Sequence record: PZ019084.1
From: a phage
Strand: one strand, 5' to 3'
Length of the DNA: 64,000 bases
In this document: in pieces, positions 7,284 through 40,911 of the stretch
How the letters are laid out: each line of letters begins with the position of its first letter
Numbering within the stretch: the stretch's first letter is position 1
Program-made: the position numbers and the translations under genes
Notes under the pieces: generated by a model
What the model was told of the DNA's origin: nothing
The model's input: only the letters and a program-made list of their open reading frames with translations
Database searches by the model: none

Positions 7284-7490
7284 TCACAATTGCCACCATT
7301 TTTTGACTTGATAAGAATCAACCCACACTTTCATGTTAGGGTCTGCTCTTACAATAGGAGGATTAACTTCTTTAATTGAACTATCATGGTATTCTTTTTC
7401 AGAAATTTTCACACAAAGATGACCATTCAAAGATTCAGTAAATCCTGCATTAATTTTAAGACGCTTGAATTTTACGTGTGTAAGCATCAA
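7284..7490 (-). CDS. Hypothetical small protein
   Basis: 68 aa ORF in the 55 to a-gt interval; coding strand consistent with neighbours. Confidence 0.3.
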   Translation of the reverse strand: MMLTHVKFKRLKINAGFTESLNGHLCVKISEKEYHDSSIKEVNPPIVRADPNMKVWVDSYQVKKWWQL

Positions 7491-7773
7491 TCATATCCTC
7501 AATCTGCGATCTAGTAGTCTTCCAAAGAATACTAATGAGTTCATCGTTATATGGCTGTTTTAGAATATCCCGACTTTTCTTGATAGCATATTCGTATTGA
7601 GCAAAATTATTGTTTTCAGCTGCAATCTGAGCGTGCTTATAAAGACGGTTCAGTTCGCGTTTATTTTTAGACAATAACTTATTTGCTTTTCTTTCTGCTT
7701 CAAGACGGTTCTTTTCTTCAATAGAAGAAATAAGCTTTTCCACTTCATCATTAATTTCGGGTTTATCAGTCAT
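7456..7773 (-). CDS. Hypothetical protein, predicted coiled coil
   Basis: 105 aa, charged and helical-looking (EKNRLEAERKANKLLSKNKRELNRL). Confidence 0.45.
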   Translation of the reverse strand: MTDKPEINDEVEKLISSIEEKNRLEAERKANKLLSKNKRELNRLYKHAQIAAENNNFAQYEYAIKKSRDILKQPYNDELISILWKTTRSQIEDMIDAYTRKIQAS

Positions 7774-38532: not shown

Positions 38533-38627
38533 TTAAAATCCTTGAAATAATTTATCAGTTGGTTATTAATTATTTATTACTTTGTTATTATCCGTAACAG
38601 CATTCTCTATGTGATTCAAACTAAAAA

Positions 38628-38650
38628 GCCCCAACCTTTCGGTCGGGGCT
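38628..38650 (-). terminator. Hairpin plus U-run (intrinsic terminator)
   Basis: Minus strand agccccgaccgaaaggttggggcTTTTTag. Confidence 0.6.
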
Positions 38651-39179: not shown

Positions 39180-39186
39180 CTAAAAA

Positions 39187-39208
39187 GCCCCGACCTTTCG
39201 GTCGGGGC
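39187..39208 (-). terminator. Hairpin plus U-run (intrinsic terminator)
   Basis: Minus strand gccccgaccgaaaggtcggggcTTTTTa, downstream of the stable-RNA/tRNA region. Confidence 0.6.
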
Positions 39209-39258
39209 TAAGCCTTGCGGCAACCTTGTCGGGGTTCCACCTGCTAAGGCAAGTGTTT

Positions 39259-39420
39259 GTACGAAACGCCGGGATTCGAACCCGGTTATTAAGCAGTTGA
39301 CGCTACTCAATATTTTTAAAAGGCCATATCTCGACCATATCCGAACGTTCCGTCAAAAACGCTACTCGGCTTACGGCAAAGATATTTCCTCGAATCGATA
39401 ATTCTGTGCGCCGTTTCTGC
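39259..39420 (-). ncRNA. Candidate stable RNA with tRNA-like 3-prime domain (T4 species 1/2-like)
   Basis: Minus strand contains ACCGGGTTCGAATCCCGG (T-arm-like) followed by CGTTTCG pairing with AGAAACG about 150 nt upstream; too long for a tRNA, no ORF. Confidence 0.35.
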
Positions 39421-39426
39421 TGTGAT

Positions 39427-39475
39427 GTAAGGGGACATTAACAGATCGTAAAGATTTGTTAATGCCAGTCCTTAC
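39427..39475 (-). ncRNA. Extended imperfect hairpin, possible second small stable RNA
   Basis: Nested inverted repeats gtaagg/ccttac and cattaaca/tgttaatg in a non-coding stretch upstream of the tRNA-like RNA. Confidence 0.3.
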
Positions 39476-39520
39476 CCAGGGAACATCAGTCCGACGACTT
39501 ACCGGTAGCGACCCGGTTTC

Positions 39521-39871
39521 TTAATATTCTTTTAAAGCATTAATCTGTTCACGACGTTTACGCCATAAATCAATTACTTCATACGCAGATTCAGCATTTC
39601 GAATTGGACGGCATTTATATAAAGACTTATGATTTTGATATTGTGTAGATAACGGAATTTTATCTAAAAGGTCTTTACGTTCAAAGTATTCGTAACCATC
39701 TAAGCCAAATGAACGATTTTTGAGAAATTGCCAATGACCAAATTCGTTTTGAATATAAATATAATCCGCGTGTTGATAAAGTAAATTAATTTCACGAAAT
39801 GAGATATGTTTTTCATATTCATTGAAGTAAAATGTTAAATCATGAACTACTAAATAAACATTACCTTTCAT
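39521..39871 (-). CDS. Hypothetical protein embedded in the tRNA/stable-RNA region
   Basis: 116 aa ORF between tRNA-Arg and the stable-RNA region; no recognisable motif. Confidence 0.4.
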   Translation of the reverse strand: MKGNVYLVVHDLTFYFNEYEKHISFREINLLYQHADYIYIQNEFGHWQFLKNRSFGLDGYEYFERKDLLDKIPLSTQYQNHKSLYKCRPIRNAESAYEVIDLWRKRREQINALKEY

Positions 39872-39889
39872 ATTTTCCTCACTTATAAT

Positions 39890-39965
39890 TGGTCGAGGCA
39901 GTAGGGATCGAACCTACGACCTAGGACTTAGAAGGTCCTTGCTCTTCCTTCTGAGCTATGCCCCG
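39890..39965 (-). tRNA. tRNA-Arg (anticodon TCT)
   Basis: Minus strand folds as cloverleaf: acceptor CGGGGCA/TGCCTCG, anticodon loop CTTCTAA, T-arm GGTTCGATCC, CCA encoded. Confidence 0.8.
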
Positions 39966-40046
39966 TAATTGGGGTGACCGATGGGAGTCGAACCCATGAC
40001 TACGAGAATCACAATCTCGAGTTCTACCAACTGAACTACGGCCACA
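39966..40046 (-). tRNA. tRNA-His (anticodon GTG)
   Basis: Acceptor GTGGCCG/CGGTCAC, D-arm GTTCAGTTGGTAGAAC, anticodon loop TTGTGAT, T-arm GGGTTCGACTCCC, CCA encoded; no encoded G-1. The tRNA itself is approximately 39971-40046. Confidence 0.6.
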
Positions 40047-40159
40047 TTAATACCTACTCCAACAATCAAGATGTCTTCACACGAAATTAAGAGAAGAGTG
40101 ATCAGTTCAACCCCTATAATCGCGTCAAGTAGATATTAATGTGACAGTTGTCACAAATT

Positions 40160-40234
40160 TGGCGGACGTGATAGGATTCGAACCTATAACCAATCGCTTA
40201 ACAGGCGATCGCTCTGCCATTGAGCTACACATCC
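40160..40234 (-). tRNA. tRNA-Asn (anticodon GTT)
   Basis: Acceptor GGATGTG/CACGTCC, anticodon stem ATCGC/GCGAT with loop CTGTTAA, T-arm AGGTTCGAATCCT, CCA encoded. Confidence 0.7.
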
Positions 40235-40238
40235 AAAT

Positions 40239-40325
40239 TGGTGGGGAGTGATGGAGTCGAACCACCCGAGTCGCAATGACAATGGATTTACAGTCCACAC
40301 CGCTACCTCTACGGGATAACTCCCC
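40239..40325 (-). tRNA. tRNA-Tyr (anticodon GTA), long variable arm
   Basis: Acceptor GGGGAGT/ACTCCCC, anticodon loop CTGTAAA, long variable arm, T-arm GGTGGTTCGACTCCATC, CCA encoded. Confidence 0.65.
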
Positions 40326-40338
40326 TTAATTCTTAATT

Positions 40339-40413
40339 TGGTGGCCCTGGGTGGAATTGAACCACCATCTGGCGATTATGAGTCGCTTGCTTGAACCTTC
40401 CAGCTACAGGGCC
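40339..40413 (-). tRNA. tRNA with CAT anticodon (Ile, as in T4, or Met)
   Basis: Acceptor GGCCCTG/CAGGGCC, anticodon loop CTCATAA, T-arm GGTGGTTCAATTCCACC, CCA encoded; position matches T4 tRNA-Ile. Confidence 0.65.
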
Positions 40414-40414
40414 T

Positions 40415-40490
40415 TGGTGCTGATTGACGGAATCGAACCGCCGACCTTCTCATTACAAGTGAGTTGCTCTACCTACTGAGCTAAATCAGC
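40415..40490 (-). tRNA. tRNA-Thr (anticodon TGT)
   Basis: Acceptor GCTGATT/AATCAGC, D-arm GCTCAGTAGGTAGAGC, anticodon loop CTTGTAA, T-arm GGCGGTTCGATTCCGTC, CCA encoded. Confidence 0.8.
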
Positions 40491-40495
40491 AAAAC

Positions 40496-40585
40496 TGGCG
40501 GAGGCGATAGGATTTGAACCTATGAGTCGCCGGAGCGACTGCCGGTTTTCAAGACCGGTGCATTAAACCACTCTGCCACGCCTCC
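40496..40585 (-). tRNA. tRNA-Ser (anticodon TGA), long variable arm
   Basis: Acceptor GGAGGCG/CGCCTCC, anticodon stem CCGGT/ACCGG with loop CTTGAAA, long variable arm, T-arm AGGTTCAAATCCT. Confidence 0.8.
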
Positions 40586-40587
40586 AG

Positions 40588-40661
40588 TCTCCATACAAGG
40601 ATTTGAACCTTGGACCTCCTGATCCCAAATCAGGCGCTCTACCAAACTGAGCTACACGGAG
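40588..40661 (-). tRNA. tRNA-Pro (anticodon TGG), CCA not encoded
   Basis: Acceptor CTCCGTG/TATGGAG, anticodon stem CCTGA/TCAGG with loop TTTGGGA, T-arm AAGGTTCAAATCCTT. Confidence 0.75.
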
Positions 40662-40671
40662 TAAATTAAAT

Positions 40672-40745
<74 letters not shown>

Positions 40746-40750
40746 AAATT

Positions 40751-40837
40751 TGGTGCGAGAAGTGGGACTCGAACCCACAAGGAAATCATTCCGCAGCATT
40801 TTAAGTGCTGTGCCTTTACCAATTTGACCATTCTCGC
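40751..40837 (-). tRNA. tRNA-Leu (anticodon TAA), long variable arm
   Basis: Acceptor GCGAGAA/TTCTCGC, anticodon loop CTTAAAA, long variable arm, T-arm GGGTTCGAGTCCC, CCA encoded. Confidence 0.8.
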
Positions 40838-40838
40838 G

Positions 40839-40911
40839 CTGGGAATAAAGGACTTGAACCTTTGCATCCTGGAATCAAAATCCAGTGCCTTACCAACTTG
40901 GCTAATTCCCA
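40839..40911 (-). tRNA. tRNA-Gln (anticodon TTG), CCA not encoded
   Basis: Acceptor TGGGAAT/ATTCCCA, anticodon stem CTGGA/TCCAG with loop TTTTGAT, T-arm AAGGTTCAAGTCCTT. Confidence 0.75.

Follow-up and report, generated by a model that had tools for sequence, protein, structure and literature searches.

The closest described counterparts of the locus studied here are found in the tRNA regions of phages T2L and T4. The tRNA region of T2L was sequenced by Brok-Volchanskaya et al. (NAR 2008, PMC2330249; EMBL AJ880101), and in crosses of T4 with T2L, segB was present in 99.6% of the progeny and the 'trna.2 ORF' in 0.4% (PMC2330249). SegB homing removes the trna.2 ORF from the progeny of T4 x T2L crosses: the ORF is deleted, not inserted, a cassette of about 1.3 kb being swapped for the segB cassette through homing (PMC2330249). 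In T4, transcripts initiated at a promoter 5' of the cluster extend across every tRNA gene and stop after the species I RNA, and a limit on segB expression by processing of the precursor has been proposed (PMC2330249). Two other phages provide points of comparison. In the T5-like phage SP15, Rad is encoded in a tRNA-rich region, beside a protective tRNA-Tyr (10.1101/2023.03.15.532788), and the tRNA-Tyr of T6 counters Septu (PMC13096335).

The window, by which we mean the whole stretch of DNA analysed (64,000 nucleotides, phage sequence record PZ019084.1), is from a Tequatrovirus; 1 kb around the gene of interest shares 98% identity with Shigella phage SF2-1 and with Escherichia phages REP4 and G50, and this 1-kb stretch matches 917 phage records. 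The gene is an ORF of 116 codons, read on the minus strand from an ATG at 39871 to a TAA at 39521 (Table 1). Its ATG lies 18 nt past the CCA end of tRNA-Arg(UCU), on the same strand, and its stop codon abuts the rnaD homologue; rnaC comes next, and then a hairpin that is also annotated as a terminator in phage G50 and that is the predicted end of the tRNA/ORF/stable-RNA transcription unit. The initial annotation had placed the ORF between tRNA-Arg and the stable RNAs, in a locus otherwise devoted to RNA genes, and on both points we agree: no other gene-supported ORF was found between the terminator and the first tRNA, the remaining ORFs listed in this interval (39186-40911) being short and overlapping tRNA or stable-RNA genes. 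The GC content of the ORF is 28%, compared to 35% for the window.

Table 1. Features of the tRNA/stable-RNA locus and of other regions of the window mentioned in the text
Feature	Position	Strand	Basis or remark
116-aa protein gene (PHROG 3355)	39521-39871	-	ORF list, PHROG match, tblastn, dN/dS, published probe primers
Shine-Dalgarno GAGG	39877-39880	-	read from sequence; 5 nt 5' of ATG, 9 nt past tRNA-Arg CCA
tRNA-Arg(UCU), last tRNA of cluster	39890-39965	-	ARAGORN; Rfam tRNA 66 bits; immediately 5' of the ORF
11-tRNA cluster (Gln, Leu, Gly, Pro, Ser, Thr, Met, Tyr, Asn, His, Arg)	39890-40911	-	ARAGORN, Rfam
rnaD (species 2 stable RNA) homologue	~39405-39524	-	alignment to T4, 103/119 identical
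rnaC (species 1 stable RNA) homologue, tRNA-like	39260-39398	-	137/139 identical to T4; covariance model R1, 183 bits
Intrinsic terminator hairpin and T-run	39186-39209	-	terminator scan: 10-bp stem, 8 GC pairs, TTTTT tail
Second terminator hairpin	38627-38650		near-identical to the hairpin at 39186-39209
tRNA-Asn/tRNA-His spacer, 114 nt	40046-40159	-	
Internal-protein-like ORF, 157 aa	38658-39131	-	starts MKSYAQFLNEA
Internal-protein-like ORF, 187 aa	37969-38532	-	starts MKTYAEFLTEA
IpI homologue, 95 aa	41973-42260	-	position as T4 ipI; nuclease inhibitor in G50 annotation
DUF2654 protein	7456-7773		Pfam, 145 bits

The two primers (#24 and #25) that served for the published trna.2 probe (PMC2330249) match the window at 39841-39869 and 39529-39553, with one mismatch each. 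Since these positions are the two ends of the ORF, we identify it with the ORF described by Brok-Volchanskaya et al. (2008) as the 'T2L trna.2 ORF'. The two are one gene, located in T2 as in the window between tRNA-Arg and the stable RNAs; RB69ORF150c and RB32ORF133c are homologues, and the family corresponds to PHROG 3355. Only allelic differences separate the two copies, the T2 protein being 87% identical. At the level of the cluster, the window phage differs from T2L by an additional tRNA-His and by the absence of the T2L 'trna.1' ORF, which lies elsewhere in the cluster.

The resemblance to segB of T4 is one of arrangement. Both are protein genes inside a polycistronic tRNA precursor, directly flanked by RNA genes, and in both the stop codon coincides with the 5' end of the RNA gene that follows; expression of the ORF is presumably limited, like that of segB, by processing of this precursor. 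Unlike segB, which encodes a GIY-YIG homing endonuclease of 221 aa, the 116-aa ORF occupies a different interval and shows no sequence or domain similarity to it; it is conserved vertically rather than sporadically, and is eliminated by SegB homing. The same holds with respect to free-standing homing endonucleases in general (GIY-YIG Seg or HNH Mob): the ORF has no catalytic domain, its distribution is not sporadic, and it is not the inserted state. A second kind of likeness is with the anti-defence genes of tRNA regions (Rad and ORF71-73 of SP15, and the protective tRNA-Tyr), in that the ORF encodes a small accessory protein among tRNA genes and is dispensable in the laboratory. Rad, however, is a protein of 189 aa with a TOPRIM/RNase-like domain, whereas the ORF protein has neither homology to it nor a recognisable domain.

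Several lines of evidence were combined to assess whether the ORF is a real gene. It matches PHROG 3355 with an E value of 1.1e-52, residues 1-115 aligning with positions 1-116 of a profile of 117, and all 13 of the relatives aligned match the same family. Homologues were detected by tblastn in 426 phage records. The Mosigvirus copies, whose annotation refers to similarity with RB69ORF150c, are about 68% identical to the window protein in amino acid sequence; the figure is 37% for Erwinia phage Gravdalen and 30% for Pectobacterium phage PM2. Profile searches extended the family to a clade of Klebsiella phages, for which KPV15 stands as representative (E 3e-9, falling to 3e-48 when the profile included this clade), and to Escherichia phage EcS1 (E 3e-16). 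Pairwise dN/dS values (Nei-Gojobori) range from 0.12 to 0.29, and changes fall mostly at third codon positions (27/20/46 at the three positions, compared to JS09). The frame is intact down to 30 to 40% amino acid identity, with invariant residues kept: T13, L31, W47, K51, Y62-F63, D67, I72 and L84 do not vary in the 25-sequence alignment A5, and the window protein has all of them. Of the 11 homologues compared, which cover six Tevenvirinae genera and two metagenomic contigs, 10 have a GAGGAAA motif 2 to 5 nt 5' of the start codon. By this pattern of conservation, the ORF is a genuine gene under purifying selection, and annotating the locus as RNA-only would be wrong. A profile search, the kind of check that the initial annotation had proposed, gave a clear match, and the grounds on which it would have called the ORF spurious, conservation in no relative and missing translation signals, are contradicted by the relatives and by their ribosome-binding motif.

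The family is narrow. Among 1.84 billion representatives, only six clusters at 50% identity were matched, and no cellular homologue was found. One of the six clusters (P0011, 650 aa) was rejected as a spurious match: it is a repetitive translation of unrelated origin.

We then considered how the gene may be expressed. On the minus strand, no promoter-like site was seen from the start of the cluster to the ORF, and the sole terminator is the one located 3' of rnaC; the ORF is therefore most likely carried on the tRNA/stable-RNA precursor. From this layout and from the T4 literature, the tRNAs, the protein and the stable RNAs would all derive from one polycistronic early or middle transcript. 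Processing of that transcript would affect both ends of the message. Once tRNA-Arg was trimmed back to its CCA, 9 nt would remain upstream of the Shine-Dalgarno sequence. At the other end, the 5' end of rnaD maps by the T4 annotation to 39524, that is, inside the last sense codon of the ORF, and cleavage there would strip the ORF of its stop codon. As processing would trim the leader and clip the stop codon, translation probably occurs mainly from the unprocessed precursor, and at a modest level. A hairpin masking the Shine-Dalgarno sequence, such as that proposed for segB, was looked for at the ORF and none was significant (z = 0.19).

Domain searches agreed with the initial annotation, which had noticed no obvious motif: nothing above threshold was returned for the protein from Pfam, NCBIfam, PADLOC or PDB sequences, and no credible PDB sequence match was obtained with the single protein or with two profiles. 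Two weak leads were followed and rejected. The first was Pfam DUF2654 (PF10849), with 18.9 bits for a cut-off of 25 and 24 residues aligned, which is a local resemblance only; the true DUF2654 protein of the window (Table 1) is helical and unrelated overall to the ORF protein. The second was a cyclic-nucleotide-binding domain (PDB 5c6c), matched with an E value of 0.011 using profile A3. This alignment has a 7-residue gap in the barrel and the phosphate-binding cassette is absent; the match was lost with the broader profile A5, and no such domain appeared in the Foldseek results. A literature search on locus names of the ORF, on peptide strings and in one accessory-gene screen found no functional data.

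The structure was predicted with AlphaFold2 in two runs, using alignments of 13 and 25 sequences, which gave the same moderate model (pLDDT 71, pTM 0.67). It comprises four strands (residues 4-9, 12-17, 37-41 and 47-52), a helix spanning 25-33 and, modelled with confidence, a long helix at the C terminus (93-115). Residues 55-92 are poorly modelled even though they form the best-conserved segment, with the invariant Y62, F63, D67, I72 and L84, and adding the Klebsiella-phage clade to the alignment made this segment no better. With Foldseek, neither model had a match at E <= 0.001 in the PDB, a database that includes solved anti-defence proteins, and no nuclease fold was found by this search. 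In BFVD, the only matches at this threshold were uncharacterised Straboviridae proteins (E 1.5e-8 to 4.7e-4, TM 0.54 to 0.80). Those predicted to share the fold are A0A1Z1LZ56 of Serratia phage X20, A0A2Z5ZCS3 of EcS1 and A0A1J0MHM0 of KPV15, and they are only 22 to 35% identical to the ORF protein. The KPV15 and EcS1 sequence homologues, of 121 and 112 aa respectively and paired with the BFVD entries by matching length, lie in tRNA clusters. As all these relatives are equally uncharacterised, they extend the range of the family and add no function. The protein is hydrophilic (GRAVY -0.8), with 18% aromatic residues and a near-neutral pI (5.8 to 7.8). Its only conserved histidine, H46, is replaced by Met in the Klebsiella-phage clade and by Glu in EcS1, which argues against catalysis.

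The reading that we favour, with low confidence, is that the tRNA operon gives rise early to a small binding protein with a role in the interplay with the host or with its defences. The product would be soluble and non-enzymatic, with a predicted beta-beta-alpha-beta-beta module followed by the long C-terminal helix, and would probably act at an early stage of infection, against a component of the host or of its defences. Its non-enzymatic nature is suggested by the lack of a match to any catalytic family, together with the loss of H46 in the KPV15 clade and EcS1. A role directed at the host or its defences is favoured for three reasons: purifying selection acts on the gene although it is dispensable, members of the family are limited to phages, and phage tRNA regions are documented as counter-defence islands. 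For this last reason, a tRNA-directed host defence would be the most plausible target. No tie of the protein to any defence system came out of PADLOC (0 matches), Pfam or the PDB, and conservation over six genera with a dN/dS near 0.15 is less typical of fast-evolving anti-defence genes, which speaks against counter-defence. The moderate quality of the structure model, with its best-conserved segment badly resolved, also weighs against this reading.

The main alternative, which seems to us unlikely, is that the protein is an RNA-binding partner of rnaC/rnaD or of a phage tRNA precursor, acting as a chaperone, a stabiliser, or a processing or modification factor. Such a role would account for a gene always encoded within the tRNA operon, and for the proximity of an rnaC-like RNA, which covariance model R1 placed 0 to 900 nt from the gene in most gene orders examined: ORF-rnaD-rnaC in Tequatrovirus and Mosigvirus, rnaC-tRNATrp-ORF in PM2 and in metagenomic contig L006, rnaC-small ORF-ORF in KPV15, and rnaC-tRNATrp-tRNAGly-two ORFs-ORF in EcS1. 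This adjacency, however, may just mean that both are old residents of a compact cluster, and the two do not always occur together. T4 and 67 other records hold rnaC and rnaD without the ORF; T4 makes both stable RNAs as well as mature tRNAs. Conversely, Gravdalen and metagenomic contig L007 have the ORF, and rnaC was not detected by the covariance model within the locus fetched for each. An obligatory coupling of the ORF with rnaC was rejected on these grounds. The protein itself gives mixed indications. Its invariant or nearly invariant residues W47, F49, K51 and R53 alternate on one predicted strand, in an aromatic-plus-basic pattern that is typical of RNA-binding sheets; this pattern would fit nucleic-acid binding equally well and so counts against the host- or defence-directed reading. 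Moreover, a best-conserved segment that is poorly modelled alone is what would be expected if it became ordered on a ligand. The near-neutral pI and the lack of similarity to known RNA-binding folds argue in the other direction.

A more elaborate proposal, which we think improbable, is that the protein and rnaC form a functional pair, a phage ribonucleoprotein encoded in the tRNA operon that might serve, for example, as a decoy or a sensor against tRNA-targeting host nucleases, and of which T4 would have lost the protein half. To our knowledge, no function has been known for the species 1 RNA of T4 (rnaC) since the 1970s.

The RNA neighbours of the ORF were themselves analysed. The rnaD homologue folds better than its shuffled versions (z = -3.7). 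The predicted fold of rnaC is tRNA-like, and 18 of its 47 pairs vary in a compensatory manner between genera; no match to an Rfam family was found. Between Tequatrovirus and Mosigvirus, rnaC is almost invariant, while the dS of the adjoining ORF is near 1.5 between the same genera. With scores of 113 to 152 bits, the covariance model found clear homologues of rnaC in KPV15, PM2, EcS1 and a metagenomic contig (L010, 20332-20494; L004, 3027-3185; L006, 79-241; L011, 14943-15101).

To return to the gene favoured here as encoding a host- or defence-directed binding protein, its history was addressed by comparing gene order between genomes. In every genome examined, the homologue is located within the tRNA cluster and on the tRNA strand. 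The genera concerned are Tequatrovirus, Mosigvirus, Winklervirus, Mosugukvirus, Jiaodavirus and Kagamiyamavirus, to which two metagenomic contigs are added. In most cases the gene follows a tRNA directly: the ORF starts 18 to 21 nt after tRNA-Arg in the window, G50, T2, HY01 and JS09, 15 to 20 nt after tRNA-Trp in the contigs L006 and L007, and 89 nt after tRNA-Thr in Gravdalen (L003), while one or two small ORFs lie between a tRNA and the ORF in PM2, KPV15 and EcS1. Position within the cluster is thus kept across the six genera, down to about 25% identity; this synteny comparison was the second check proposed in the initial annotation. We conclude from this constant placement that the ORF is a long-term resident of the tRNA operon in six Tevenvirinae genera.

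The state of the junction upstream of rnaD was also counted, among records containing the 5' end of rnaD. At least 284 records have the ORF next to rnaD, a count that misses the more divergent Mosigvirus copies, compared to 68 records (T4 and 67 others) with the T4-type junction between tRNA-Arg and rnaD. Within this census, the ORF-bearing junction is the commoner state, and the cross-genus synteny indicates that it is also the older one, the T4 state being derived.

In T4 itself there is no copy of the ORF, and tRNA-Arg lies 1 nt from rnaD. The initial annotation had supposed that the analogous interval of T4 hosts mobile or accessory ORFs. This is not the case, as the interval is empty: segB occupies the next interval upstream, the one flanked by tRNA-Ile and tRNA-Arg. 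The T4 and window sequences become homologous again exactly where the ORF ends, at its stop codon. The ORF therefore forms the right-hand end of a cassette by which the two phage types differ. This cassette is about 1.3 kb long, comprises the region from tRNA-Met to tRNA-Arg plus the ORF, and is absent from T4. The tRNA-Arg(UCU) of the window is near-identical to that of T2 and only about 55% identical to that of T4 (L002, 2674-2748), despite more than 85% identity in the adjoining rnaD. T4-type and T2-type phages thus have non-orthologous versions of this isoacceptor, which is consistent with cassette replacement. SegB homing exchanges a cassette whose right-hand limit is set precisely by the stop codon of the ORF, and the ORF is a dispensable accessory gene. 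The locus had been proposed as a likely site of gene turnover, and this stands for the region, which does vary, as shown by the 68 T4-type junctions and by the 99.6% loss in T4 x T2L crosses. It does not stand for the ORF, which is a resident rather than a newcomer, nor for the strict T4 interval.

These data leave very little room for the ORF being a mobile or selfish insertion, that is, a homing-endonuclease-like gene or its passenger, recently arrived between tRNA-Arg and rnaD. Presence in T2 and absence from T4, a sharp breakpoint at the stop codon, a GC content lower than that of the window and location in a known target region of SegB homing could all be read in this way. However, the documented homing event deletes the ORF, the gene is syntenic in six genera under purifying selection, and the ORF-bearing junction outnumbers the T4-type one. 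In addition, the protein has no GIY-YIG, HNH or other nuclease domain, its 116 aa are about half the length of SegB (221 aa, from a 666-bp ORF), and in HY01 the tRNA cluster holds both the ORF and a homing endonuclease gene. We therefore consider a recent insertion to be already largely refuted. As for a chance open frame in the spacer or leader RNA of the stable-RNA precursor, the RNA-coding character of the rest of the operon and the lack of an assigned function or domain would be in its favour, but this idea is refuted by the conservation pattern, that is, low dN/dS with an excess of third-position changes, a frame kept intact at 30 to 40% identity with its invariant residues, and a conserved Shine-Dalgarno sequence, to which a consistent and compact AlphaFold model may be added.

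The ORF was already known, as a hypothetical protein in hundreds of phage genomes and as a name in the 2008 paper, and matters little in itself. It belongs to the very few protein genes kept in tRNA clusters across six genera, and is a reasonable candidate for screens that look for counter-defence or RNA-related functions among the accessory genes of T-even phages. T2, where the ORF is present, and T4, where it is absent, form a natural test pair.

Other features of the region deserve mention. In the more distant relatives, a gp30.3-like gene (PF08010) is found 3' of the ORF, either directly or within two small genes, and is followed by a further tRNA-Gly (L006, 1140-1589; L007, 4060-4509; L004, 4067-4507). 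This ORF/gp30.3-like/tRNA-Gly arrangement is conserved in the distant relatives and absent from Tequatrovirus at this position.

Within the tRNA cluster of the window, the spacer between tRNA-Asn and tRNA-His contains no ORF, no tRNA and no Rfam match. Its predicted fold has an energy of -32.7 kcal/mol (z = -4.4), and none of 200 shuffled sequences did as well. Copies with at least 99% identity to the spacer occur in 175 phage records, and some 150 others, mostly Klebsiella and Enterobacter phages among the examples listed, have a copy of about 82% identity. A similar unannotated gap of about 100 nt is present just 5' of tRNA-His in Gravdalen, PM2, KPV15, EcS1 and contig L007. The spacer may correspond to another conserved small RNA or to a tRNA relic.

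Just downstream of the stable RNAs, two ORFs of 157 and 187 aa begin with similar peptides (Table 1), which resemble the N-terminal capsid-targeting sequence of T4 internal proteins. Near-identical terminator hairpins, AGCCCCGACCGAAAGGT(C/T)GGGGCT, are present in two copies, one 3' of each of these ORFs; the T4 counterpart at this position is e.8. The two ORFs look like variable genes of the internal-protein type, in repeated modules bounded by terminators. On the other side of the cluster, the 95-aa ORF is evidently a homologue of the internal protein IpI. Its location upstream of trna.4-, trna.3- and trna.2-like ORFs confirms the T4-type gene order around the cluster.
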